From the NCBI RefSeq assembly GCF_036971445.1, contig NC_091471.1:237150001-237214000 (forward strand): a stretch of 64,000 nucleotides of DNA, in the 5' to 3' direction. This document shows, piece after piece, positions 8,047-64,000 of this stretch (positions are counted from its first letter, which is position 1; each line of letters begins with the position of its first letter). The position numbers and the translations under genes were made by a program. A model generated the notes under the pieces. That model saw only the letters and a list, made by a program, of their open reading frames with translations, ran no database searches and was not told the origin of the DNA. This DNA comes from Narcine bancroftii. Lineage: Eukaryota.

Positions 8047-9462
8047 ATGGAGAAGGTGCCAGAGCCAGCATCCATGGAAGACAAGGACCAGGCAGTAACA
8101 CCTGCTGAAGCAGAGGAAGAGGAGGGGAAACCTGAGGAGGCAGCGAAAGAGGAGGCAGAGCCCAAGGAAGCAGCGAAGGAAGAGGCAGTGCCTGAGGAAG
8201 CGGAGGAAGCAGTGAAAGAGGAAGCAGAGCCTGAGGAAGCAGCGAAAGAGGAGACAGCGCCTGAGGAAGCAGAGCCCAAGAAAGCAGCGAAAGAGGCTGA
8301 GCCCGAGGAAGCAGCGAAGGAGGAGGCAGAGACTGAGGAAGCAGTAAAAGAGGAGGCAGTGCCCGAGGAAGCAGTGAAAGAGGAGACAGCACCTGAGGAA
8401 GCAGAGCCCGAGGAAGCAGCGAAAGAGGCAGAGCCCGAGGAAGCAGCGAAGGAGGAGGCAGTGCCCGAGGAAGCAGAGGAAGCAGTGAAAGAGGAAGCAG
8501 AGCCTGAGGAAGCAGCGAAAGAGGAGACAGCGCCTGAGGAAGCAGAGCCCAAGGAAGCAGCGAAAGAGGCTGAGCCCGAGGAAGCAGCGAAGGAGGAGGC
8601 AGAGACTGAGGAAGCAGTAAAAGAGGAGGCAGTGCCCGAGGAAGCAGTGAAAGAGGAGACAGCACCTGAGGAAGCAGAGCCCGAGGAAGCAGTGAAAGAG
8701 GAGGCAGTGCCCGAGGAAGCAGCGAAAGAGGCAGAGCCCGAGGAAGCAGCGAAGGAGGAGGCAGTGCCCGAGGAAGCAGTGAAAGAGGAGGCAGTGCCCG
8801 AGGAAGCAGTGAAAGAGGAGGCAGTGCCCGAGGAAGCAGTGAAAGAGGAGGCAGTGCCCGAGGAAGCAGTGAAAGAGGAGGAAGGGCAAACGTGTCCAAA
8901 ACCACAGCCATCAGAAGACAGCACTGGTGAGAAAGCAAAGCCAGCACACGAGGAAAAAGCTGATAAAACTACACTGACAGGAGGCACTTGTGCAAAACCT
9001 ACACCAGAAGACAGAACGAAACAAAAAACAGAACAAGCAGACGAAAATACCTGTGGAAAGCAACAACCAGAAGAGAATAGGAGTGAGAAAGCAAAGGCAA
9101 CCCAAGGTGCTCCCTGTTCTACAGCAAATCTTGCTACAGCTACAGTTGGAGGCTGTAAATTCAAACCACCTGCAGACAGCTGTTCTACAAACAATGAGGC
9201 AGCTCCAGGCAGTCCCTGTGAAAAAGCAAACCCAGCAAGACCCTGTGACTGTCAATTCAAATCAGCAGACGTCAGCTCCCCAGCTGCCATTAACTCCAGG
9301 GGAAAATCAAAACCTACCCAATGCTGGGGAACTGAGCAGCCAGCAGAAATCTGTGCCTGTGGAAAACCAAAGGCAGCTGCAGCCAAAACCTGTGGAAGTT
9401 CACCCAGAGGCATTTGTGGCTCCAAACCAGTGGGCAAAACTTGTGGGAAACCAAGACAATAG
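8047..9462 (+). CDS. Uncharacterised acidic E/A/K/P-repeat protein with Cys-rich C-terminus (471 aa), single coding exon
   Basis: Strong Kozak GCAATGG at 8047; frame stays open through ~580 nt of non-repetitive sequence after the repeat; much repeat variation is synonymous in this frame (CCT/CCC, GAA/GAG, AAA/AAG); pyrimidine tract + CAG acceptor at 7908 and AAG|GTAAAG donor at 9476. Confidence 0.65.
   Translation: MEKVPEPASMEDKDQAVTPAEAEEEEGKPEEAAKEEAEPKEAAKEEAVPEEAEEAVKEEAEPEEAAKEETAPEEAEPKKAAKEAEPEEAAKEEAETEEAVKEEAVPEEAVKEETAPEEAEPEEAAKEAEPEEAAKEEAVPEEAEEAVKEEAEPEEAAKEETAPEEAEPKEAAKEAEPEEAAKEEAETEEAVKEEAVPEEAVKEETAPEEAEPEEAVKEEAVPEEAAKEAEPEEAAKEEAVPEEAVKEEAVPEEAVKEEAVPEEAVKEEAVPEEAVKEEEGQTCPKPQPSEDSTGEKAKPAHEEKADKTTLTGGTCAKPTPEDRTKQKTEQADENTCGKQQPEENRSEKAKATQGAPCSTANLATATVGGCKFKPPADSCSTNNEAAPGSPCEKANPARPCDCQFKSADVSSPAAINSRGKSKPTQCWGTEQPAEICACGKPKAAAAKTCGSSPRGICGSKPVGKTCGKPRQ
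8131..8880 (+). repeat. Coding minisatellite: ~30-nt unit (EEAVPEEAVK) with a 273-nt higher-order duplication
   Basis: Landmarks recur at 8251/8524 and 8281/8554 (period 273 nt = 91 aa); last four 30-nt units are identical. Confidence 0.92.
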
Positions 9463-39800: not shown

Positions 39801-42800
39801 TCCACCTTAATTTTGTAATTGTTTTAAATTCAGAATAATCTCCCACTCCAACTGGTAAAATTTCATATATCCCGATAATTCTCCAAATTTCAACAAACAC
39901 TCTTCCAATTGTTTCAGTGACCTCTACGGTTCCATCAAATATACCAAAACGTCATCCGCAAATAAATTAATTTTATATTCTTCATTCTTAACCCACATCC
40001 CTCTAATTTCTTCATTTTGTTTAATAGCCTGAGCTAACGGTTCAATAATCAATGCAAATAAGGCTGGTGACAATGGGCAGCCCTGTCGAGTTGAACAAGT
40101 CAATTTAAATGGTAAAGAAATCTGTCCATTCGTCACCACCCTAGCAATCCGATTCGTATATAAAGTCTTAACCCAACCAATAAAAAAAGGGTCGAATTTA
40201 AATTTCTCTAACACCTTTAAAAAAATCCCACTCAAACCTATCAAAAGCTTTTTCTGCATCTAATGGTTAGGTGGCTTTTGATATGCATTGACCAAAGTAA
40301 TTAAGATACCTATTCCTTCTTTATGTATTTTATAGATGCAAAATGGTTGGCAACTCAGGAAAAGGTTTAATATGATTGTCAACCGAACTGGAGGGATCAA
40401 AAGAGATTTTATTTCCCTCAAAGGGCATGAAACAAAATGGGTAACTACTTCAAAGATGAAAAGACTACAGGGGTACAACAGATCAGAAAAGGGAAGAGGA
40501 AGACTTTTAAAGTGGCCAATGAGATAAAAAAAAGGCTTCTTCTGTGCTGTATCTACTACTCCCATTGTTAAATTCAGCTGAACATCAGCATAATTATTTA
40601 GTGGTCATAGGATGAGATAGCAGAAATGGCTTATTTGTAGGCCAATTAAGATATTTAATATTTACCCCATTTCCAGGAATATCTGACGAAATTCTGTTCG
40701 GACTTTCATCAAGGGGTGCAGATGGCCACAGTCTGGAATGATGCCCTGGGCATCAAAGTTGTATGACTTGAATTTCCTCCCTTGCCATGAACCACTGTGA
40801 ACAGAATTTGCAGACGTTGCTTTAAAGATCTCCACATTACTTGCAGCAATAACAAGAGTCATAATCAGGCAGGGAAGCTTATTTTATGCAATGAAATTTT
40901 TTTTTAAATTTGTTTTGCTCTCAGTCTGAAGGTTATTGCATGTTCCAAATGAAAATTGTACAGTTTAGGACAAGAAAGAAACCCAAATATTGACAGCCCT
41001 TCTCAACCATTTTTTGGCTATGTTTAATGGTGACAATGACTTAGGACTCTGTTCAAGGTTTATGAACCCCTTTCCCTGTGATGCAGTCAAGTTTAGTTGG
41101 CTTCTCTTCTATCAACTACATAAAACGCTTTATGATTTCAGTCTGTGCCCCCACTCTTAAATGTGCTGTGGTCCCCATGGAGGAAGTAAGGCTCCCATTG
41201 AGAATGGCTGGTGAAGAGTATGATATAACGGAACATTGGAACAATAATATCAAGAATGTAAAACTGACTGATCTCCCTAGAACATTAATTGATGGATTGT
41301 ATTTGGATTCAACACCAAGGTAGAAGAGCTAGTAGAATGAAAGTTTAGCTTTCAATTGTGATCCAATTATTCAATGTAAAGTGAACATGATAAAAGAATG
41401 AACACAAACATCACCTAATGCTGAACAATATTTCTGAATGTGAATAGCACACCAACACTCCCTGCCCCCTTGTGAAAAGTTTCTGTGATCATCCACTGAA
41501 GACCAACACGAAATGGTTTCCAACAAGGTTCAACACATTGAGATATTCAGCTGCTGAAAACCAATCAAGTGGACATGCTCAATTCATTCAAGAAAACTCA
41601 AATCTCAGGGAAAAAGAATGAAAGAGAACGTGAAAGAAAATGTCCCAGTCTACCACGTGCAAATTTTGGAACTACGCCCTTTATTAGCAACCATGCCAGA
41701 GAACATCACAACATGATTTCTGTCTGGCACACAAATCATTGTGAGGAGAATCAAGGTGGGTGCTTGTCTGTGCTACAGGCCAATCAAGAATTTAACCAGT
41801 GCTGACAATCTGCATAAAAAAAGTTTCTGTTTAAGTTGCAATGTTTTGGGAGGAGTCACGTGATGGAGTAGTGGTCAGTCGGGGAACTCCAGCCCTCTCC
41901 AGAAAAGTAAAATAAAGACAGTGAAAAAACGAAGGCACAAACACAAAAACCAAAATAAAGTGAAAATAAAGGTGTGGAGAAAATGGCAGCGAAAAAAGAA
42001 AAGTCAAAAGCAATGGGAAGAAGAGAAGAAGAAAGGACGTCGGAAGAAGGTGAAGGCCTTACCTGTCCGAGGAGGCCCGCCGCGGAGAGAGAAGCCCGCT
42101 CCCTAAGGTCAGTTGAAGTCCCGAACTCGGGACTACAAAAATGGCTCACGGAGCCAAGCAAAAATGCGCAACCGCGCATGCGCGAGGAGTCGCGCACGAT
42201 GCGCAAGACAAAAATAATATTGAAGGGAGGGGGGAACCAGCTGAGGAGTCGATCTCCACAACTGAGATTGACAGCTACAACACAACAGCAAGAGGAAAAC
42301 GCAGAAAATAACGAGAGCAAGAAAGAGAGTAAGAAGAAATCAAAGAAACAACAGATGACCAACCCAGAGGAAGAAGACCATCAGCAAGACACTTCTAATA
42401 AAAATAAGAAGACCAAAAATACCCAACAAAATAAAACAAACAAACCAACAAGAAAACCAGAAGAGACAGAGGTAAAGGACACAGATCCTGGAATGGACTC
42501 AGAAGAAGAAGAAGAGGAAGAACACAGAGAAATGGAAGATGAAGGGAAGGGCAAGACAATGGATATATATTTTTTTAAAGAATATATGGAATCAGTAAAA
42601 GAATGGCAGTCACAAGAATTCAGTGAAATAAAAAGAAGAGTAAAAAGTACAGAAGAAAAAATGAACAGATTAGAGATGATCATGTCAGATATAGGAAAAA
42701 GAGTGGACAAGGTGGAAGAACGAGAAACAGCCGTAGAAATGGAAGTAGAGGACTTAAAAAAGAAATTAGAAGAATCTGATAAAAAAGTTAAAGAGACACA

Positions 42801-43387
42801 AGAGCTGTTAGCTAAAAAGATAGATAAAATGGAAAATTATAGTAGAAGAAACAATATAAAGATAGTGGGCCTTAAGGAAGATGAAGAAAGCAAGAATATG
42901 AGAGAATTTATAAAAGAATGGATCCCCAGGGTCCTAGGAAGACCAGAACTACAGGAAGAAATGGAAATAGAAAGGGCACACAGAACATTAGCCCCTAAAC
43001 CACAACCACAACAAAAACCAAGATCCATTCTAGTAAAATTCTTAAGATATGCAACAAGAGAAAATATATTGGAGAAAGCAATGAGGAAAATAAGAGAAGA
43101 CAAAAACCCACTGGAATACAAAGGTCAAAAAAATTTTTTCTATCCAGATACAAGTTTTGAACTCCTAAAGAAAAGGAAGGAGTTTAATGCAGCAAAAACG
43201 ATCCTATGGAAAAAAGGATATAAATTTATGCTAAAGTATCCAGCGGTACTTAAAATAGTTATTCCAGGGCCGCAAAACAGACTATTCTTGGATCCGGAGG
43301 TAGCAAGAAAATTTGCAGAACAACTACAAAACAGACAGAGAAAGGAAGATATGTAACGAGAACAAAAATAAATAAATAAACAAATAG

Positions 43388-43431
<44 letters not shown>

Positions 43432-46400
43432 ATGTATATATTAAAAAAAATAGAATATAGGTAAGAACTAAGAAGGGAAAGAAAGGGAAGAAAGGAAGTA
43501 TGGGGGGAATTAAGAGAGTGACCTTTGTTGCATATGAAAATTAAAATCTTTTCTGGGGGGGCTGGGTGTGGAGAGTTATGGTCACTGCGAAATCAGTTGA
43601 CGCTTGTGAGTGAATTCGCAAATCCAAATGGAGAGGGGAGATGTGGTTGCCCGACAAAGGATAAAGGGCAACTCAGGAAGGGGAGGGGATAGTGGGGTGA
43701 AAGAAATTTTAGATAGGAGAATAAGGGAAATGTTTGATGTTTTAGAAATGTTGTCTTATAAAGTGTTCAAAAAAAGAAAGCAGAAATGGATAAGAAGGAA
43801 AGGTGATGATGAGGAAACGGAAAGGAAAGATAAACAAAGTATGAAATGGCTATGTTGAACTATATGACTTTAAATATTAATGGAATACATAACCAAATCA
43901 AAAGGAAGAAACTGCTACATTTACTGAAAAAAGAAAAAATTGATATAGCTTTCGTGCAAGAAACACACTTAACTGAAGTGGAGCACAAGAAATTAAAGAG
44001 AGATTGGATAGGACATGTAACAGCAGCGTCATATAATTCAAAAGCTAGAGGAGTAACTATATTAATCAGTAAAAATGTACCAATTAAAATAGAAGAGGAA
44101 ATAATAGATCCAGCAGGGAGATATGTAATGATAAAATGTCAGATATATTCGGAGTTTTGGAATTTACTCAATGTATATTCACCTAACGAAGAAGATCAAA
44201 AATTTATGCCAGATATTTTTTTTGAAGATAGCAGACACGCAAGGGAACATACTAATAGGAGGGGATTTCAACCTTAATTTGGATTCAAAATGGATAAAAC
44301 TGGGAAAAAAATTAACAGAAAGAACAAAGTAACCAAATTTATAATTAAATAGATGCAAGAAATGCAACTTTTGGATATATGGAGGAAACAACACCCAAAG
44401 GAAAAGGAATATTCATATTATTTGGGTAGACATAAAACATACTCAAAAATAGACCTATTCCTGTTATCAGCTCGCATGCAAGACAGAGTTAGGAAAACAG
44501 AATATAAAGCTAGAATATTATCGGACCACTCACCCCTGATATTGACAATAGAGTTAGAGGACATCCCTCCAAGAATGTATAGATGGAGATTAAAATCCTT
44601 GCTACTTAAAAGACAGGATTTTAGAGAATTAATTGAAAGACAAATCAAAATGTACTTTGAAATAAATACAGAATCAGTGAAAGATAAGTTTATACTATGG
44701 GACGTAATGAAAGCGTTCATCAGAGGCAAATAATAAGTTATGTAACTAAGATGAAGAAGGATTACAATCAGGAAACAGAGCAGTTGGAAAGGGAAATAGC
44801 AAATATAGAAAAAGAATTAGCAATGAAGGAAGACACAACTAAAAGAAGAGAATTGGCAGATAAAAAAATAAAATATGAAACACTACAAACATATAAGGTG
44901 GAGAAGAACATAATGAAGACAAAACAGAAATATTATGAACTAGGAGAAAAAACACACAAAATTCTAGCATGGCAGCTTAAGACAGAACAAACTAAGAGAA
45001 TGGTATTGGCATCAAGGAAAAAAGACAAACAAATCACATATAATCCAACGGAGATTAATGAAAACTTCAGAGAATTCTACGAATAATTATACCAAACTGA
45101 AAACGAAGGGAAAGAAGACAAAATAGATGAATTTTTAACTAAAATTGACCTACCGAAATTACAAACAGAGGAAAAAAATAAATTAACAGAACCATTTGAA
45201 ATAGTAGAAATACAAGAGATAATAAAAAAACTACCGAATAATAAAACACCAGGAGAGGATGGATTCCCAATAGAAATCTATAAAACATTTAAAGATTTAT
45301 TAATTCCTCCCCTCCTGGAAGTAATCATCCAGATTGATAAAACACAAAGCTTATCAGAGGGAAAATAATAAGTTATGTAACCAAGATGAAGAAGGACTAC
45401 AATCAGGAAACAGAGCAGTTGGAAAGGGAAATAGCAAATATAGAAAAAGAATTAGCAATGAAGGAAGACACAACTAAAAGAAGAGGATTGGCAGATAAAA
45501 AAAAATATGAAACACTACAAACATATAAGGTAGAGAATAACATAATGGAGACAAAACAGAAATATTATGAACTAGGAGAAAAAACGCACAAAATTCTAGC
45601 GTGGCAGCTTAAGACAGAACAAACTAAGAGAATGGTATTGGCATCAAGGAAAAAAGACAAACAAATCACATATAATCCAATAGAGATTAATGAAAACTTC
45701 AGAGAATTCTAGGAACAATTATACCAAACTGAAAACGAAGGGAAAGAAGACAAAATAGATGAATTTTTAACTAAAATTGACCTACTGAAATTACAAACAG
45801 AGGAAAAAAATAAATTAACAGAACCATTTGAAATAGTAGAAATACAAGAGATAATAAAAAAACTACCGAATAATAAAACACCAGGAGAGGATGGATTCCC
45901 AATAAAATTCTATAAAACGTTTAAAGATTTATTAATTCCTCCCCTCCTGGAAGTAATCAACCAGATTGATAAAACACAAAGCTTACCAGATTCATGCAAA
46001 ACAGCAATAATTACAGTAATACCAAAGACAGGGAAAGATCTACTTGCACCAGCGTCGTATAGACCAATATCTTTACTTAACACAGATTATAAGATAATAG
46101 CTAAACTATTAGCAAACAGATTAGCCGACTATGTACCAAAAATAGTAAATCTAGACCAAACTGGATTTATTAAAAAAAGACGCACAACAGACAATATTTG
46201 TAAATTTATTAACTTAATTCATGCAGTAGAAGGAAATAAAGCTCCAACAGTAGCAGTTTTTAGACGCAGAGAAGGCCTTTGACAGAGTAGAATGGAATTA
46301 TTTATTCAAAGTACTACAAAAATTCAGCTTACCAGAGAAATATATTAATTGGATTAAAGCATTATATAAGGGGCCATTGGCAAAAGTGACAGTAAATGGA

Positions 46401-49400
46401 TATATATCATAACAATTTAACTTAGATCAACAAGGGAGGGATGCCCACTATCGCCCTTATTGTTCGCGTTAGCCATAGAACCACTAGCAGAACTGATAAG
46501 AACAGAAAATAAAATAAAAGGGATAAAAATAAAAGACAAGGAATATATAATCAGTTTATTTGCAGATGACGTTATAGTATACTTAACAGAACCAGAAATA
46601 TCAATAAAAGAATTACATAAGAAATTGAAGGAATATGCAGAAGTGTCGGGATACAAGATTAACGCAAATAAAAGTGAAGCAATGCCAATGAATAATGCGG
46701 ATTTCTCAAAATTTAAGAAAGAATCACCATTCAGATGGCAAATGCAAGCAATGCGATACCTAGGTATACAAATAAATAAAAACCTCGGCCATCTATATAA
46801 ACTCAATTATAAACTCACTAATGAAAAAATTACAGGAAAACTTAGCATTGGAAAGACCTACCACTAACACTAATAGGAAGGATAAACTGTATTAAAATGA
46901 ACATTTTCCCAAGGATACAATACCTATTTCACGCATTGCCAATACACTTGACAGAGAAATTCTTCAAGTAGTTAAAGAAAATATTAAGGAAATTTTTATG
47001 GAAAGGGGGGAAACCGAGGATAACACTAGATAAATTAACAGAATGGTATAAACAAGGAGGCTTACAACTGCCAAACTTTAAAAATTATTATAGAGCCGCA
47101 CAATTAAGATACCTATCAGATTTTTATCAAACAAGGGAAAAGCCAGATTGGACTAGATTAGAACTAGATAAAATAGGGGAGAAGATACCTGAACATATAT
47201 TATATAAATGGGATGAAAAATTGGTACAACGTAGGAATTCTCCAGTATTACGTCTTCTGCTCAATATTTGGAAGAAGATTCATGTAGAAAGGAATAAAAC
47301 AAATTACCAACTACCAAAACTAATACTGACGCAAAATCAGCTAATCCCTTTTAGAAAAGATAACCTTTCCTTTAGAGAATGGGAGAAGAAAGGGATCAAA
47401 AGAATAGAAAATTGCTTTTCGGGAAATAAATTATTATCCTTTGAACAAATGAAGGATAAATATAATATAACTCACGATACAGTGTCGGCATACTACCAAC
47501 TGAAATCCTACTTGAAGGACAAATTGGGAAGCAGTCTGAAGTTACCAGAGGGAAGTAATTTTGAATAAGTGATTACAGACACAATGATAATCAAAAAATT
47601 TGTAACAAACATGTATATTAAACTACAAGAAAAGGAAAATGAGGAAACAAATGGTAAAACTAAACAAAAATGGGAACGAGATCTAAACATAAAGATAAAG
47701 AATGAAACATGGAAGAAGCTATGCTCCGGAACTATGAGAAATACAATAAACACGAGGTTACGCATGATACAATATAACTGGATACACAGGCTATATATTA
47801 CACCTCAAAAGTTAAATAAATGGGACCCAACAGTATCTGACAGATGTTTTCGCTGCAAAAAGGCAATGGGAACAACAATTCATGCAATATGGACATGTGA
47901 GAAAGTGGAAAAATTTTGGGAAGATCTAAACCAGATATTAAATAAAATCACAAAAAGTAATATACCAAAAAACCCAGAGATCTTCCTCCTAAGTAACATA
48001 AAAAACAAAGAATTTGGACTTGATTTGGATGGTGCACAAAAAAGATTTGTTATGATAGCCCTAGCTGTCGCAAAAAAATGTATTATGTCAGCCTGGAAAT
48101 TAGAAGATAACTTGAGAATACAACAATGGTATATAGAAATGAATAAATGTATTCCATTAGAAAAAATAACATATAATTTAAGAAATAATATTACAATATT
48201 TGAACAAATATGGGAGCCATACATGAAACACAATAGAGAAAACCTACCGGGGACATCTACCACCTAAAATGACAGAAGGAGAAGAGAATGAAAAGAACTG
48301 ACTCAGTGGAATTTTTTGTTTGTTTTTATTGAGTGACAACATTATTTGACGGGTTTAATGTATCCTATTTTCTGAACTTTAAACGAATGGGAGGGGAGGT
48401 AGGGAGGGGAAGAGGGAGGGGGGGGAGAAAATAACACTGTATATGTTCAAGAGGGAAAATGTATGTATCATGATCAATGTGGTTTATAGTGTGAAAAATA
48501 AAATTTTTTTTTAAAAAGTTGCAACATTTTGAACAATTATCACTGTCAAGTCAAATCGTATATTTCTGAAATCTTACTTAGCTATCATCTCTGGGGTGAG
48601 GTCGGTATCTTGTTTGACCACTTTGGTGCTGAATGAACTTCCTTTGGTGATCCAATAGGTCTTCAAAGTCCTTAAATAGAAGTGATATTGTCAAAACACA
48701 GAAATGCAGATGAATTCCACAGTGTGAAGAGAAACAAGGAAAAAGATACAACTTGTGTATCTCTCTCTCTTGATGTCAAACAAATCTAATGGACAAAGAT
48801 TCACTTTCTTGCATCAAAGTTGTGACACAAAAAAGTAGATGACACAATTTTCTTGTTCATTTTCATTGTGTGATGACATTGTTTAATGGGTTTATTGTAT
48901 TGTATATGTTGAACATTTAATGGGTTGGGAGGGAGTGGGAAGGAGGAAGGGAGGGGGAAAAAGGGGAGAAAATGACACTGTGTATATTCAAGAGGGAAAT
49001 GTTTGTGTGTATTTTGGTTAATATGGTTCATAGTGTGAAAAATAAACAATTTTTTTTAAAAAATGTTGTGACACAACAGATATTTCCACAAAACTCCTAT
49101 AACCACAATGCATGATTGACCAGAAAATCCATTCTAATGTTTCTTAAAGAACAAGTATTGTTCAAAACACTAAGTAAATCTGCTGACAAAGTACTGTAGG
49201 ATATTTTATGGTCCTAAAAAGGACAGATGGGACTTTAGTTAATATCTAGGCCAAAATAAACCAAACATTCACAGTTCACGGTGACCTGGCATAAATCTCG
49301 TTGGCCCTGCGAGATTTACAAGCCTTGGTGCGGCCCTTGTCTATTTAACTGCTTCAGGTGATTCACATACTCCTCCCTGAACTCGCTACCTTCCACATCC

Positions 49401-57920: not shown

Positions 57921-58492
57921 TCTGTGACTGAATATGTAATATTTTATATATTATATATAGATACATTTTAAAGGAGAAATACTGTAGCAGGTTTTCCAGT
58001 GTAGGTCACAAACACTTCAAAACTGATCTCATTTAAAATGCAAGACAGACAGTCCAGTGCTGAGTGCCTTTGCAAAAACTTTGAAGAATTCCTGTAAGGA
58101 CTTCACAAGTAAGTGTTAATTGGACATGCTGTGGAGTTATAGATTATTGTTTTGGAAAGGAACAGATGAACAGACTCGGAATATTAGGTCCGTTGCCTCA
58201 ATCTGTCTGAATGCAGTGTGCTGTTCTTTTTTTTTATTTTTTATTTTTCACACCATAAATCACATTAACCATGGTACACACTTTTTCCTTTTCACACATA
58301 TACAGTGCCATTTTCTCCCCCCCCCCCCACCTTCCCTCCTCACATCCCACCCTCCCTACCTCCCCCCTCCCGTCCATTTAAAGTATACAATCTAGGATAC
58401 ATTAAACCAGTCAGACAATGTTGTCATTCAATAAAAATACACCAGAAATTCTACTGAGTCCATTCTTTTCATTTCCTTTTCCTTCCGTTAAC

Positions 58493-61400
58493 TTAGGTAA
58501 TGATTGTCCCCGGTAGGTTTTCGCTATTGTATTTAATGTAAGGCTCCCATATTTGTTCGAATATTTCAATATTATTTCTTAAACTATATGTTATTTTTTC
58601 TAATGGAATACATTTATTCATTTCTATATACCATTGTTGTATTTTCAAATTATCTTCCAATTTCCAGATTGACATAATACATTTTTTTGCTATGGCTAGA
58701 GCTATCTTAACAAATCTATTTTGTGCATCCTCCAAATCAATTCCAAATTCTTTGTTTTTTATGTTACTTAGGAGGAAGATCTCTGGATTCTTTGGTATAT
58801 TGTTTTCTGTTATTTTATTTAATATCTGATTTAGATCTTCCCAAAATTTTTTAACTTTCTCACATGTCCAGATTGCATGAATTGTTGTTCCCATTTCTTT
58901 TTTACATCGAAAACATCTATCAGATACTATTGGGTCCCATTTATTTAACTTTTGAGGTGTAATGTATAGCCTGTTTATCCAGTTATATTGTATCATACGT
59001 AACCTCGTATTTATTGTATTTCTCATCGTTCCGGAGCATAACTTCTCCCATGTTTCCTTTTTTATCTTTTAATTTAAATCTTGTTCCCATTTTTGTTTAG
59101 TTTTACCATTTGTTTCCTCATTCTCCTTTTCTTGCAGTTTAATATACATATTTGTTATAAATCTTTTGATTAACATTGTATCTGTAATCACATATTCAAG
59201 ATTACTTCCCTCTGGCAAACTTAAACTGCTTCCTAATTTATCCTTCAAGTAGGATCTCAATTGGTAATATGCCAGTGCTGTATCTCCAATTATATTGTAC
59301 TTATCTTTCATTTGTTCAAAGGATAAGAATCTATTTCCTGAAAAACAATTTTCTATTCTTTTAATCCCGTTTTTTTCCCATTCTCTAAAGGAAAGGTTAT
59401 CTATTGTAAAAGGGAGTAACTTGTTTTGCGTCAATATTAGTTTTGGTAATTGATAATTTGTTTTATTTCTTTCTACATGAATCTACTTCCAAATATTGAG
59501 GAGATGATGTAATACTGGAGAACTTCTATGTTGTACCAATTTTTCATCCCATTTATATAATATATGTTCAGGTATCTTTTCCCCTATTTTATCTAATTCT
59601 AATCTCGTCCAATCTGGCTTTTCCCTTGTTTGATAAAAATCTGATAGGTATCTTAATTGTGCAGCTCTATAATAATTTTTAAAGTTTGGCAGTTGTAAGC
59701 CTCCTTGTTTATACCATTCTGTTAATTTATCTAGTGCTATCCTCGCTTTCCCCCCTCTCCATAAAAATTTCCTTATTATTTTCTTAAACTCCTTGAAGAA
59801 TTTCTCTGTCAGTTGTATTGGCAATGCCTGAAATAAGTATAATATCCTTGGAAAAATGTTCATTTTAATACAATTTATCCTTCCTATTAGTGTTAGTGGT
59901 AAATCTTTCCAATGCTCTAAATCGTCCTGTAATTTTTTCATTAGTGGATAATAATTGAGTTTATATAGTTGGCTGAGATTTTTGTTTATTTGTACACCTA
60001 GGTATCTTATTGCTTGCATTTGCCATCTAAATGGTGATTCCTTCTTAAATTTTGAGAAATCTGCATTATTCATAGGCATTGCTTCACTTTTATTTATGTT
60101 TATCTTGTAACCCGACACTTCTCCATATTCCTTCAATTTCTTATATAATTCTTTTATTGATAGTTCTGGTTCTGTTAAGTACACTATAACATCATCCGCA
60201 AATAAACTGATTTTATATTCCTTGTCTTTTATTTTTATTCCTTTTATATTATTATCTGTTCTTATCAATTCTGCTAGTGGTTCTATAGCTAACGCAAACA
60301 ATAAAGGTGATAGTGGGCATCCCTGTCGTGTTGACCTGCTTAAGTTAAATTGTTTTGATACATGTCCATTTACTGTCACTTTCGCTAATGGTCCCTTATA
60401 TAATGCTTTAATCCAATTAATATACTTCTCCGGTAAACTGAATTTTTGCAATACTTTGAACAAATAATTCCATTCTACTCTGTCAAAGGCCTTCTCTGCA
60501 TCTAAAGCAACTGCTACTGTTGGTGCTTTATTCCCTTCTACTGCATGAATTAAGTTAATAAATTTACAAATATTGTCTGTTGTGCGTCTTTTTTTGATAA
60601 ATCCAGTTTGGTCTAGATTTACCATTTTCGGTACATACTCTGCTAATCTGTTTGCTAATAATTTAGCTATTATCTTATAATCTGTGTTAAGTAAAGATAT
60701 TGGTCTATATGGCGCTGGTGTGAGTGGATCTTTCCCTTGCTTTAGTATTACTGTAATTATTGCTGTTTTACATGAATCTGGTAAGCTTTGCGTTTTATCA
60801 ATCTGGTTGATTACTTCCAGGAGGGGCGGAATTAATAAGTCTTTAAATGTTTTATAGAATTCTATTGGGAATCCATCCTCTCCTGGTGTCTTATTATTTG
60901 GTAATTTTTTTATTATCTCTTGTATTTCTACTATTCCAAATGGCTCTGTTAATTTATTTTGTTCCTCTATTTGTAGTTTTGGTAGTTCAATTTTAGTTAG
61001 AAATTCATCTATTTTCCCTTCTTTCCCTTCGTTTTCAGTTCGGTATAATTGTTCATAGAATTCTCTAAAGTTTTCCTTAATTTCTTTTGGATTATATGTA
61101 ATTTGTTTGTCTTTTTTCCTTGATGCCAATACCATTTTCTTAGCTTGTTCTGTCTTAAGCTGCCATGCTAGGATTTTGTGCGTTTTTTCACCTAGTTCAT
61201 AATATTTCTGTTTTGTCTTCATTATATTTTTCTCCACCTTATATGTTTGTAGTGTTTCATATTTTATTTTTTTATCCGCCAATTCTCTTCTTTTAGTAAT
61301 ATCTTCCTTCATTACTAATTCTTTTTCTATATTTACTATTTCCCTTTCCAACTGCTCTGTTTCCTGATTATAGTCCTTCTTCATCTTAGTTACATAACTT

Positions 61401-62290
61401 ATTATTTGCCCTCTAATGAATGCTTTCATTGCATCGCATAGTATAAACTTATCTTCCACTGATTCCGTATTTATTTCAAAATACATTTTAATTTGTTTTT
61501 CAATAAATTCTCTAAAATCCTGCCTTTTAAGTAACATGGGGTTTAATCTCCATCTATACATTCTTGGAGGGATGTCCTCTAACTTTACTGTCAATATTAA
61601 GGGTGAATGGTCCGATAGTATTCTAGCTTTATATTCTGTTTTTTTTACTCTATCTTGCATACGAGCTGATAACAAAAATAGGTCTATTCTTGAGTATGTT
61701 TTATGTCTAGCCGAGTAATATGAATATTCCTTTTCCTTTGGGTGTTGTTTCCTCCATATATCCAAAAGTTGCATTTCTTACATCGATTTAATTATAAATT
61801 TGGTTACTTTGTTCTTTCTGTTAATTTTTTTCCCAGTTTTGTCCATATTTGAATCCAAATTCAGGTTGAAATCCCCTCCTATTAATATGTTCCCTTGCGT
61901 ATCTGCTATCTTCAAAAAGATATCTTGCATAAACTTTTGATCTTCTTCATTAGGTGAATATACATTGAGTAGATTCCATAACTCCGAATATATCTGACAT
62001 TTTATCATTACATATCTCCCTGCTGGATCTATTATTTCCTCTTCTATTTTAAATGGCACATTTTTACTAATTAATATAGCTACTCCTCTTGCTTTTGAAT
62101 TATACGATGCTGCTGTTACGTGACCTACCCAATCTCTCTTTAATTTCTTATGCTTCAATTCAGTTAAATGTGTTTCTTGCACAAATGCTATATCAATTTT
62201 TTCTTTTTTCAGTAAATTTAGCAGTTTCTTCCTTTTAATTTGGTTATGTATTCCATTAATATTTAAAGACATATAGTTCAACGTAGCCAT
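58493..62290 (-). pseudogene. L1 ORF2, nearly intact (stops at 61778 and 59483, frameshift near 59069)
   Basis: 170-aa endonuclease piece, 763-aa RT piece ([24 protein letters not shown]) and C-terminal pieces. Confidence 0.92.
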
Positions 62291-62954
62291 TTTATACTTT
62301 GTTTATCTTCCCTTTCTGTTTCTCCATTATTACCTTTCCTTCTTATCCATTTCTGTTTTCTTGTTTTGAATCCTTTATAAGACAACATTCCTAAAACATC
62401 AAACATTTTCCTTATTCTCCTATTTAAAACTTCTTTAGCCCCAATCCCCCCTTCCCCTCCTGAGTTGTCCTTTATCCCTTGTCGGACAACCATATCTCCC
62501 CTCTCCATTTGGATTTGCGAATTCACTCGCAAGCGTCAGCTGATTTTTCAGTGACCGTAACACCCCCCCACCCAGCCCCCCCCAGAAAAGATCTCACTTT
62601 TCATATGTGACAAAGGTCACTCTTTTAATTCCCTCCTTATTCCCTCTATACCTTTTCCTTCCCTTATTAATTCTTGTCTATACTATCTATATTTTCCTCT
62701 AAATACGGATACATTCATGTATGCACATTATACATATACACACATATACCTCTTTACCCACATACATATAAATCGTGGTCATTTTTACTCTTATTACGTG
62801 TCTTCATCTCTCTGTTTGTTTTGTAGTTGTTCTGCAAATTTCCTTGCTTCCTCTGGATCCGAGAATAGTTTTTTTTCCATAAGATCGTTTTCGATGTTTT
62901 GAACTCCTTCCTCCTCTTCAGATTCTTTTTAGTTTGCAGTTTTTTGTACTCTCG

Positions 62955-63998
62955 TTACACGTCTTCATCTCTCAGTCTATTTTGTAATTGTTCTGCAAAT
63001 TTTCGTCCTTCCTCTGGATCCGAGAATAGTCTGTTTTGCTGTCCTGGAATAAATATTTTCAATACCGCTGGATGCTTTAGTATAAATTTATACCCTTTCT
63101 TCCATAAAATCGCCTTTGCTGTATTGAACTCCTTTCTCTTCTTCAGGAGTTCAAAACTTATATCTGGATAAATGAAGATTTTTTGCCCTTTGTACTCCAG
63201 TGGCTTATTGTCCTCTCTTACTTTTTCCATTGTTTTCTCCAGTACCTTTTCTCTTGTAGTATATCTTAGGAATTTTACTAAAACAGATCTTGGCTTTTGT
63301 TGTGATTGTGGTTTAAAGGCCAATGATCTATGTGCCCTTTCTATTTCCATTTCTTGCTGTAGTTCTGGACATCCTAGGATCCTAGGGATCCAATCTTTTA
63401 TAAACTCTCTCATATTCTTGCCTTCTTCATCTTCCTTAAGGCCCACTATCTTTATGTTATTTCTTCTGTTATAATTTTCCATTATATCTATTTTCTGAGC
63501 TAACAGTTCTTGTGTCTCTTTAACTTTTTTATTAGATTCCTCTAATTTCTTTTTTAAGTCCTCTACCTCCATTTCTACTGCTGCTTCTCGTTCTTGCACC
63601 TTGTCCATTCTTTTTCCCATTTCTGATAAGGTCATATCTATTTTATTCATTTTCTCTTCTGTATTGTTTATTCTTCTTCTTAAATCATTAAATTCTTGCG
63701 CTTGCCATTCTTTAAATGACTCCATGTATTCTTTAATAAGAGAAAGTATATCCTTTATCTTGCCTTTCCCTTCTTCTTCTATTTCACTGTACTCTTCCTC
63801 TTCCTCTTCTTCTTCCTCTGGGTTGGCCATCTGTTGTTTCTTTGTTGCCCTTTTCTTCTCTTCTTTCTTGTTTTCGTTGTCTTCTATGTTCTCCTCTTGC
63901 TGCAGGTGTTCTGCAGCTGTCGTTGCCGGCTGTGGAGATCGACTCCCCAGCTGGTCACCCCTCCTGTCGGTGTGTTTTTTTTCATGCGTATCGCGCAT
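62955..63998 (-). CDS. L1 ORF1p, intact within the window (N-terminus probably truncated by the edge)
   Basis: [38 protein letters not shown]. Confidence 0.85.
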   Translation of the reverse strand: MRDTHEKKHTDRRGDQLGSRSPQPATTAAEHLQQEENIEDNENKKEEKKRATKKQQMANPEEEEEEEEEYSEIEEEGKGKIKDILSLIKEYMESFKEWQAQEFNDLRRRINNTEEKMNKIDMTLSEMGKRMDKVQEREAAVEMEVEDLKKKLEESNKKVKETQELLAQKIDIMENYNRRNNIKIVGLKEDEEGKNMREFIKDWIPRILGCPELQQEMEIERAHRSLAFKPQSQQKPRSVLVKFLRYTTREKVLEKTMEKVREDNKPLEYKGQKIFIYPDISFELLKKRKEFNTAKAILWKKGYKFILKHPAVLKIFIPGQQNRLFSDPEEGRKFAEQLQNRLRDEDV

Positions 63999-64000
63999 GC

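Follow-up and report, generated by a model that had tools for sequence, protein, structure and literature searches.

A third open reading frame at the ORF2 start of ray L1 elements and its recurrence in distant L1 lineages

Two L1 elements and the ORF in their spacers

The window analysed here, a 64,000-nt stretch of Narcine bancroftii DNA (contig NC_091471.1), contains two L1 elements. Copy A (41849..48515, forward strand) is full length, has 85-90% identity to copy B, and is flanked by a 16-bp target-site duplication (41833-41848 and 48516-48531; 14/16 identical). Its ORF1 (41983..43356) is open for 457 codons, with a dN/dS of 0.24 between the copies. A 489-nt spacer (43357..43845) follows, with a TA/TG microsatellite in its 5′ part (43390..43441) that is poorly conserved between the copies. 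ORF2 of copy A (43846..48267) encodes endonuclease and reverse transcriptase (RT) and is disrupted by stops, frameshifts, and a 641-bp tandem duplication. Copy B (58227..64000, reverse strand) has an A tail at its 3′ end; its 5′ end lies outside the window. Its ORF1 (62955..63998) is open as far as the window edge, and its ORF2 (58493..62290; endonuclease, RT, and zinc-binding end) has three internal stops. A Pfam scan matched copy B ORF2 to Exo_endo_phos (3.8e-12), RVT_1 (4.5e-42), and zf-RVT (5.9e-05), and matched no L1 ORF1 family. Copy B ORF1 shared 93% identity with an N. bancroftii protein that bears the name LINE-1 ORF1, and 30-39% with named teleost L1 ORF1 proteins. Both elements are L1 clade non-LTR retrotransposons, as indicated by an ORF2 with APE endonuclease, RT, and zinc-binding end, an L1-type ORF1, and a target-site duplication with an A-rich 3′ end. 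A sequence-only reading of this DNA had placed ORF1 about 490 nt from ORF2. This is correct for copy A and incorrect for copy B, whose spacer measures 664 nt because part of the ORF1 3′ end is present in it a second time (62782..62876, reverse strand; 85% identical to 62943-63037).

The same reading had reported a 76-codon ORF in both spacers, overlapping the start of ORF2. We found it at 43628..43858 (copy A, forward strand) and 62278..62508 (copy B, reverse strand), ungapped between the copies; in both, its TGA begins 10 nt past the A of the ORF2 ATG (+10). Its frame differs from that of ORF1, and the variable microsatellite lies in between. In copy A, its ATG is 271 nt from the ORF1 stop, with five intervening ATGs. 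The two remaining frames are closed, by 7 and 8 stops in copy A and 6 and 7 in copy B. An ATG-initiated ORF of at least 76 codons with its stop no more than 15 nt from the ORF2 ATG occurred in only 0.04-0.5% of 5000 shuffled sequences, and any ATG-initiated ORF of at least 72 codons in 0.5-2.9%. The earlier caveat, that a purine-rich composition makes open frames likelier, was not borne out: there were 4.3-6.6 stops in each 72-codon frame of the shuffles.

Openness in two copies, taken alone, is weak proof. Across ~1260 codons, ORF2 of the two copies has 8 stops along with 7 internal indels, a density at which ~0.9 lesions are expected over 76 codons and the chance of none is ~0.4. Neutral change at the observed divergence kept the ORF open in 20% of simulations (P ~0.2).

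Sequence change in and around the spacer ORF

The copies differ at 27 nucleotides of the spacer ORF; 21 codons are changed non-synonymously and 2 synonymously. The changes are distributed 10/10/7 over the three codon positions, and dN equals dS within the ORF. Its dN/dS was 0.91, versus 0.12-0.16 for ORF2 and no more than 0.39 in all 19 windows across ORF1 and ORF2. Variants within the ray family were taken from contigs of four organisms; among 86, 40 were listed and 37 scored, three upstream variants that were rare in two deep runs being omitted. Among the variants listed, 14 of 15 mid-frequency changes in the spacer ORF were non-synonymous, several of them radical, versus 4/4 synonymous changes among ORF2 variants below 50% frequency. 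All five listed indels at a frequency of at least 5% lay upstream of the ORF and none inside it. None of the 20 listed substitutions creates a stop in the ORF when two neighbouring changes, whose linkage was inferred from equal depths, are taken jointly. The absence of stops alone is not significant in the ray family (P ~0.2). As far as sequence can test it, the suggestion that the peptide is unconstrained held.

Database searches gave no credible homologue of the peptide. No Pfam family was matched, no candidate of near length was found, and none of 19 longer candidates scored. An Atlas search gave a best score of 0.78, below lead level. The sole HMMER match among 1.84 billion sequences, a 494-aa tandem-repeat protein, was rejected as a repeat artefact because 30 positions were matched nine times. 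Neither purifying selection on amino acids nor homologues, the marks of a protein-coding small gene, were found.

The 3′ spacer is conserved irrespective of codon position, with 26 differences versus 44.7 expected. The 122 nt immediately upstream of the spacer ATG (43506..43627, forward strand), a candidate element for ribosome entry or loading, showed 14 differences between the copies versus 27.7 expected, about half the four-fold-site rate. Pseudoknot-free folding of this segment revealed no common structure in the two copies (z 0.04 and -1.97), and gave no support to a hairpin just 5′ of the spacer ATG or to a longer-range pairing, both spotted by eye. A search of Rfam returned nothing near gathering score, only microsatellite-driven miRNA scores far below threshold.

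Two smaller ORFs are nested within the 76-codon ORF. The first (43786..43806, forward strand), present in both copies, has 6 codons in the ORF2 frame; its ATG is at -60, and its stop at -42 overlaps the next ATG. The second (43806..43844, forward strand) has 11-12 codons in the third frame, with its ATG at -40/-37 and its stop (TGA in copy A, TAA in copy B) at -4, which leaves 1 nt between it and the ORF2 ATG. We offer these mini-ORFs as a second possible route to ORF2 in the ray element. The longer may be due to chance, because some ATG-initiated ORF of at least 10 codons ended no more than 15 nt from the ORF2 ATG in 24-36% of shuffles.

The spacer ORF in other L1 lineages

We fetched 34 further loci. 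Six covered the end of ORF1 as well as the start of ORF2, 27 lacked an ORF2 start in the fetched DNA, and one was left unscored because it had a weak endonuclease match only and looks like a different element with a short spacer (L034). Two of the six, L004 and L005, were the same, so that the complete spacers represent five distant lineages, whose endonucleases are 35-41% identical. Eight additional loci comprised six viral endonucleases, one without upstream DNA (L042), and one spacer-less relative that serves as a contrast (L041).

All five distant lineages contained an off-frame ORF of 62-104 codons with its stop at +1 to +11 of the ORF2 ATG, two of them depending on the choice of ATG, and in each it was the longest ORF of the spacer. 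The values were 82 codons with stop at +8 for L005 (trinucleotide-shuffle P 0.019), 64 codons and +8 for L001 (P 0.008), 62 codons and +11 for L002 (P 0.035), 68 codons and +1 for L006 (P 0.008), and 104 codons and +11 for L008 (P 0.0007). Use of the upstream ATG in L005, where both ATGs are plausible, places the stop at +32, outside the range; use of the second ATG in L002 places it at -31, also outside. L002 aligns with L001 from residue 1, which speaks for the first. The stops were nearer the ORF2 ATG than in codon-shuffled ORF2 (single P 0.11-0.70; product 0.001 over six spacers, of which L001 and L002 are not independent). In the six spacers including that of the ray, the ORF starts 108-370 nt downstream of the ORF1 stop, with 1-10 ATGs between. 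In the spacer-less relative, the ORF1 stop itself lies at -2 (n=1).

The peptides were dissimilar across lineages, ranging from hydrophilic to hydrophobic (GRAVY -1.23 to +0.84); those of L001 and L002 were 36% identical. Gaps between these two lineages were 12, 3, and 6 nt within the ORF, and 7, 2, and 3 nt upstream. L008 also holds a 74-codon ORF on its minus strand. TURBS-dependent reinitiation was rejected: the calicivirus-type motif 1, UGGGA, was found in 1/6 spacers, more than 110 nt upstream there, and was absent in the ray. A programmed -1 frameshift fusion was likewise rejected, with a slippery heptamer at 0/6 junctions.

Published long spacers of mammal, lizard, frog, and zebrafish L1s (PMC5381506, supplement parts 1-4 of 7; L1-17B was left out, and zebrafish L1-16B was unscored because its ORF2 start is unclear) were inspected by eye. 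An ATG-initiated ORF of at least 55 codons reached ORF2 in 23 of 34, and a stop-free run of at least 50 codons was present in 33; null rates from the six analysed spacers (2-11% and 8-36%, respectively) predict ~1-4 of 34 for the ATG-initiated ORF. The remaining 11 lacked such an ORF, and opossum lacked a long open frame. Pig, zebrafish L1-6, 10B, and 13A, and frog L1-35 had a long open frame in which no ATG comes early, and in frog L1-38 the long frame was ORF1's own. Five of the 23 ORFs stopped just 5′ of the ORF2 ATG, which fits coupling and not repression by overlap. The proposal that the frame and its stop/start overlap are retained was supported, as far as sequence can test it, by recurrence in 5/5 distant lineages and, by eye, most published long spacers. 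This recurrence is the decisive evidence for the third ORF.

Possible routes to ORF2

The observations are the frame and its position, the freedom of its amino acids from constraint, and the reappearance of such a frame in spacers unrelated to one another. From them we consider it fairly probable that the third ORF is a ribosome relay, feeding ORF2 by termination-reinitiation with a peptide that is immaterial. Some ribosomes would begin translating from the spacer ATG, having either reinitiated after ORF1 or entered internally on the conserved 122 nt. As elongating ribosomes they would then traverse 175-300 nt with G-runs and 2-6 out-of-frame ATGs, which would trap or slow a scanning small subunit. 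Termination would come no more than ~11 nt from the ORF2 ATG, where they would restart, as proposed for human L1. Two inefficient restarts would keep ORF2p scarce. A stop of an upstream ORF close to the ORF2 start, as termination-reinitiation calls for, is present at +10 in both ray copies and at +1 to +11 in the other lineages, two by choice of ATG. Several points count against the relay: the spacer ATG is far from the ORF1 stop, in 6/6 lineages analysed the stop comes only after the ORF2 ATG, which is the geometry of a repressive upstream ORF, and a short ORF would reinitiate better than one of 60-100 codons. The dependence of two lineages on the choice of ATG, the want of a shared UGGGA motif, the 11 published spacers without such an ORF, the inhibitory megabat spacer (see below), and the nested mini-ORFs weigh on the same side.

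In human L1, ORF2 is proposed to be translated by termination-reinitiation (Alisch et al. 2006, as cited in PMC4091050, PMC5972666, and PMC4072516), and ORF2p depends on an upstream ORF, not necessarily ORF1, being completed (PMC4091050). The ray element resembles it in that ORF2 starts near the stop of an upstream ORF of indifferent identity. However, that ORF is ORF1 in human L1, 63 nt away, whereas in the ray ORF1 stops 489-664 nt short of ORF2, and another ORF, of 76 codons, closes 10 nt into ORF2. The third ORF would take over from ORF1 the role of the upstream ORF whose completion is needed. The idea that small spacer ORFs aid ORF2 translation has a published precedent in megabat L1, which also has a long spacer (445 bp) and whose small ORFs were proposed as the source of a nearby stop. 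Removal of spacer AUGs cut its retrotransposition 3.3-fold, and the spacer as a whole inhibits mobility ~26-fold (Yang et al. 2014, PMC4072516). The megabat ORFs are several and lie in three frames; the sections of that paper available to us describe neither one long ORF tied in position to where ORF2 starts nor conservation across vertebrates. Boissinot and Sookdeo (2016, PMC5381506) addressed the same region and question. They judged the long spacer ancestral, interpreted long vertebrate spacers as a dicistrovirus-like IRES adjoining ORF2, and doubted reinitiation; the available parts of their paper do not mention a spacer ORF, yet most of their spacers hold one by eye. A review (PMC3894237) rates reinitiation over long spacers as highly improbable, which is against the relay. 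SART1 (UAAUG) and the TURBS of calicivirus and influenza B likewise place stop and restart a few nt apart in different frames (PMC5972666); however, both ORFs encode needed proteins there, whereas here the upstream ORF is free in sequence, and the ray junction has no UAAUG overlap or conserved UGGGA. Primate L1 ORF0 is also a third small ORF in an L1, but it is antisense, in the 5′ UTR, and primate-only (cited in PMC9252281 and PMC5381506), whereas the ray ORF is sense and lies between ORF1 and ORF2. Our literature search, with subscription papers and Repbase notes mostly outside its scope, found no single long position-fixed third ORF in an L1 spacer. The main rival to the relay is a repressive overlapping upstream ORF, which we regard as unlikely. 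Ribosomes from the spacer ATG would overrun the ORF2 ATG and be lost, and ORF2 would be translated by ribosomes that skip the spacer ATG, possibly more under stress. The model is ATF4 uORF2, an out-of-frame ORF that starts upstream of the main ORF and ends just within it, and whose peptide is unimportant; it lies in a capped 5′ leader behind a short permissive uORF, where the ray has the 457-codon ORF1, and does not require a stop near the main ATG. The unconstrained peptide and the out-of-frame overlap of the main start in 6/6 lineages analysed fit this account, as do the scarcity of ORF2p (PMC4091050) and the overall inhibition by the megabat spacer. However, the overlap is absent in 5/23 published ORFs (by eye). 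Moreover, repression could do without stops at such short range, 11 nt or less from the ATG (product P 0.001), skipping ribosomes would face 2-6 further ATGs ahead of ORF2, and removal of megabat spacer AUGs lowered activity (PMC4072516).

A working small protein with a loose or fast-evolving sequence is improbable. Lengths of mostly 55-105 codons, frame-keeping gaps between L001 and L002, and a dN (0.126) below the ORF2 dS (0.27-0.30) leave room for some constraint, but the non-coding 122 nt upstream changed equally slowly, dN did not differ from dS, the family variants were mostly non-synonymous, and the character of the peptide varies by lineage. Somewhat less probable still is an untranslated frame, an accident of low complexity or of a conserved DNA or RNA element such as an IRES, internal promoter, or G-rich tract. 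Conservation regardless of codon position, the minus-strand ORF of L008, the T-rich spacer of L005, which lifts the null to 11%, and IRES programs that flagged 32/36 long spacers (PMC5381506) are consistent with it; however, the frame recurs in both A/G-rich and T-rich spacers well above trinucleotide shuffles, no common pseudoknot-free fold and no Rfam family was found, and an IRES could itself belong to the relay, by loading ribosomes at the spacer ATG. Least probable is a piece of a larger protein, made by frameshift to ORF2 or by splicing or read-through from ORF1: spacers with a long frame but no early ATG, and frog L1-38, agree with it (by eye), but slippery heptamers are lacking, a stop closes the ORF2 frame at -15 in the ray and at -3 in L006, the ray frame differs from that of ORF1, with the variable microsatellite in between, a spliced RNA copied back as template should lose the intron (judging from cis-preference), and, a weak point, no longer protein contains the peptide.

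The claim of a third ORF is confirmed and, judged from the spacers compared, extends beyond the two ray copies. IRES and reinitiation are competing accounts of ORF2 translation over spacers of hundreds of bases, and an ORF conserved in position would bring the L1s of fish, frog, lizard, and some mammals under a single rule. It is an evenly balanced question whether the ancestral vertebrate L1 had three frames, every long spacer from rays to elephants keeping a peptide-free bridge ORF of 55-200 codons that passes elongating ribosomes to ORF2; the two-ORF L1 of human and mouse would then be derived, with the ORF1 stop taking over. The frame would have been overlooked so far because position alone, not sequence, is conserved. 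The relay, if true, would account for the tolerance of the human mechanism to any upstream ORF, and the third ORF brings ORF2 translation within reach of reporters altered at a single codon. It would also stand as a clear example of a long frame that is maintained only for being translated, invisible to annotation based on dN/dS.

ORF content of the two ray L1 spacers

Two L1 elements lay in the window, ~10% apart. Copy A (41849-48515, + strand) was full length and flanked by a 16-bp target-site duplication; copy B (58227-64000, - strand) was truncated by the window edge. Pfam matches to endonuclease, RT and zinc-binding domains were found in ORF2, and copy B ORF1 was 93% identical to a Narcine bancroftii protein named LINE-1 ORF1. 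ORF2 was damaged in both copies (five stops in A, three in B, seven internal indels). Copy A ORF2 also carried a 641-bp tandem duplication (44719-45358 and 45353-45990; 96% identity), and another L1 3′-UTR fragment (48846-49062; 77% to the copy A 3′ end) followed directly past this copy. A 471-codon ORF without Pfam match was present in an A/G-rich tandem-repeat region (8047-9462, +).

The sequence-only reading had proposed a third, 76-codon ORF between ORF1 and ORF2. It was present in both spacers (43628-43858, +, in A; 62278-62508, -, in B), with its stop at +10 relative to the A of the ORF2 ATG. The 27 nucleotide differences between copies gave 21 non-synonymous and 2 synonymous codons, as had been counted by hand. 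The ORF1-to-ORF2 distance of ~490 nt put forward with it was correct for copy A (489 nt) but not for copy B (664 nt). A partial repeat of the ORF1 3′ end in the copy B spacer (62782-62876, -; 85% identity) suggests a template switch between subfamilies.

The third ORF was open, and each of the other two frames contained 6-8 stops. When spacers were shuffled with 1-, 2- or 3-letter content preserved (5000 trials), an ATG ORF of at least 76 codons whose stop lay no more than 15 nt from the ORF2 ATG arose in 0.04-0.5%, and any ATG ORF of at least 72 codons in 0.5-2.9%. The earlier concern that purine-rich sequence raises the chance of open frames was not borne out; spacer composition therefore does not explain the third ORF. 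A 1-3% event drawn from a large scan is not proof by itself. Openness in both copies adds little, because the ORF2 decay rate predicts ~0.9 lesions per 76 codons (our own arithmetic) and the frame stayed open in 20% of simulations of neutral change at the observed A-B divergence.

Spacer ORFs in other L1 lineages

PMC5381506 gives the sequences of 36 long spacers in its supplement, and 34 were scored by eye (unscripted, so that single errors are possible; homopolymer lengths in the consensuses are uncertain). The best of three frames was counted if it reached the ORF2 start off-frame or stopped within ~16 nt of it; for two families the ORF2 start was shifted upstream, the endonuclease start lying within the printed spacer. 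An ATG ORF of at least 55 codons was found in 23 of the 34: 2/4 mammals (elephant, 88 codons; hyrax, 85), 11/15 lizard and frog families (up to ~200 codons) and 10/15 zebrafish families. In pig, an open run of 68 codons lacked an early ATG, and the opossum spacer had neither an ATG ORF of this size nor a long open run. Stop-free runs of at least 50 codons were seen in 33/34. Under the same rule, shuffles of six fetched or ray spacers gave 2-11% and 8-36%, respectively; this null, borrowed from spacers other than those scored, predicts ~1-4 ATG ORFs in 34. Among the 23, five stops fell at -3 to -16, two at +5 and +16, and 16 beyond the printed end.

By eye, the printed intergenic sequences of frog L1-29 and zebrafish L1-12B and L1-16B contain the ORF2 endonuclease start, and their spacer lengths look overstated in PMC5381506. 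Ray (43622-43637, +), elephant and hyrax spacers were alike in the context of their ATG, with C at -3, G at +4 and a peptide beginning Met-Glu (by eye, n=3); this context was absent from the five lineages described below.

An ORF1-alignment scan yielded 34 loci, six with a whole spacer; two were near-identical, leaving five lineages. Their endonucleases were 35-41% identical to that of the window, their ORF1 was nearer teleost-type proteins, and their spacers, mostly T-rich, measured 346-545 nt up to the ATG used. In all five, the longest spacer ORF was off-frame and terminated at the ORF2 start: 82 codons with stop at +8 in L004 and L005 (trinucleotide-shuffle P 0.019), 64 at +8 in L001 (0.008), 62 at +11 in L002 (0.035), 68 at +1 in L006 (0.008) and 104 at +11 in L008 (0.0007). 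The result depends on the chosen ATG in two: L002 qualifies from its first ATG, the one to which the sole ATG of L001 aligns, and L005 fails with its upstream ATG (stop at +32). Minus-strand controls gave 7-74 codons. Stops lay closer to the ORF2 ATG than in codon-shuffled ORF2 (product P 0.001; six cases, not fully independent). The third ORF is a real feature.

A spacer-less relative, the non-LTR element L041, had an ORF1 (651 codons) whose stop overlaps the ORF2 start at -2, around 1973; its contig, filed under a bacterial MAG, is likely eukaryotic contamination.

Proposed translational relay and possible repression

Judging from sequence, the spacer ORF probably serves as a relay, in which ribosomes terminating at its stop would restart at the ORF2 ATG. 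Human ORF2p is reported to require a completed upstream ORF, not necessarily ORF1 (PMC4091050, citing Alisch 2006). In megabat L1, where the spacer overall is inhibitory, removal of the spacer AUGs reduced mobility 3.3-fold (PMC4072516). Spacer ORFs contain 2-6 out-of-frame ATGs plus G-runs. An elongating ribosome would pass over these, which may be why the ORFs are long.

The weak link of the relay is ribosome entry at the spacer ATG, which sits 108-370 nt beyond the ORF1 stop with 1-10 ATGs intervening; a review doubts reinitiation across such spans (PMC3894237). The conserved 122 nt upstream of the spacer ATG could act as an entry site; structure prediction in both copies and an Rfam search supported no fold there. 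Directly 5′ of the ATG is a small hairpin-like inverted repeat (43603-43622, +). A G-U/G-C copy difference leaves its stem paired, and its loop contains the site of a common variant; the hairpin appeared in the predicted fold of copy B only. In both copies, two nested mini-ORFs (43786-43844, +; 62292-62350, -) are linked stop to start, and the chain closes 1 nt ahead of the ORF2 ATG; three stop codons are TGA in copy A and TAA in copy B. This chain may be chance; between a quarter and a third of shuffles gave similar ends. A TURBS motif was sought and rejected.

ATF4 is an example of repressive ORF overlap, and by analogy the spacer ORF might repress ORF2. Stops downstream of the ORF2 ATG are consistent with this main rival, which is nevertheless rather unlikely: it is at odds with the clustering of stops near that ATG, with stops upstream of it, and with the megabat result (PMC4072516). 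The two could also be combined as a throttled relay.

Peptide and nucleotide constraint

That the spacer ORF encodes a selected peptide is improbable. As the sequence-only reading had held, the ray peptide appeared unconstrained: dN/dS between copies was 0.91 (dN 0.126, dS 0.140), with 10/10/7 changes across codon positions, vs 0.12 and 0.16 for ORF2, 0.24 for ORF1 and a maximum of 0.39 across 19 ORF1/ORF2 windows of third-ORF length. Pfam and protein database searches gave no family and no credible homologue. The L001 and L002 peptides shared 36% identity; gaps measured 12, 3 and 6 nt within the ORF and 7, 2 and 3 nt upstream (their positions are uncertain in so distant a pairwise alignment); the remaining peptides had nothing credible in common (GRAVY -1.23 to +0.84). 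A Gly-rich, then hydrophobic Cys-rich stretch in L001 (2776-2967), L002 (1958-2143) and L005 (1353-1598) tracks G-run and T-rich DNA; DNA composition and a membrane-binding peptide are candidate explanations.

Relative to four-fold sites, the third ORF diverged roughly half as fast (26 differences observed vs 44.7 expected, P 0.0006), as did the 122 nt upstream (14 vs 27.7); the 3′ UTR was not slowed (46 vs 50.5). This points to probable nucleotide-level constraint, or else to recombination between subfamilies. That the open frame is a by-product is quite improbable.

Contigs of four organisms (5764, 1112, 33 and 65) were aligned to copy B. Among the 40 of 86 variants listed (37 scored), all five indels fell upstream of the third ORF, 19 of its 20 substitutions created no stop, and neither its ATG nor its stop varied. 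The remaining substitution makes a stop if alone; in the two shallow runs its depth equalled that of its neighbour, and we infer that they are linked, the pair encoding arginine. Two of the 20 would create stops in another frame. Among those scored, third-ORF variants below 90% share were non-synonymous in 14/15 cases, and ORF2 variants below 50% in 0/4. Fusion of the frame into a larger protein is highly improbable; frameshift fusion was tested and rejected.

Position is kept, the peptide is free, and the layout recurs across lineages. Boissinot and Sookdeo regarded the long spacer as ancestral and predicted IRESs (PMC5381506); no mention of a spacer ORF was found in the part of that source covered. 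A single long, position-fixed third ORF was not found described in the portions of the literature searched, including PMC2241872, PMC9252281 and PMC5972666; subscription papers, Repbase notes and the megabat supplements may mention it. Earlier papers have already reported termination-reinitiation at L1 ORF2, as well as a role for small ORFs in the spacer, and the third ORF is a fresh form of this known mechanism.
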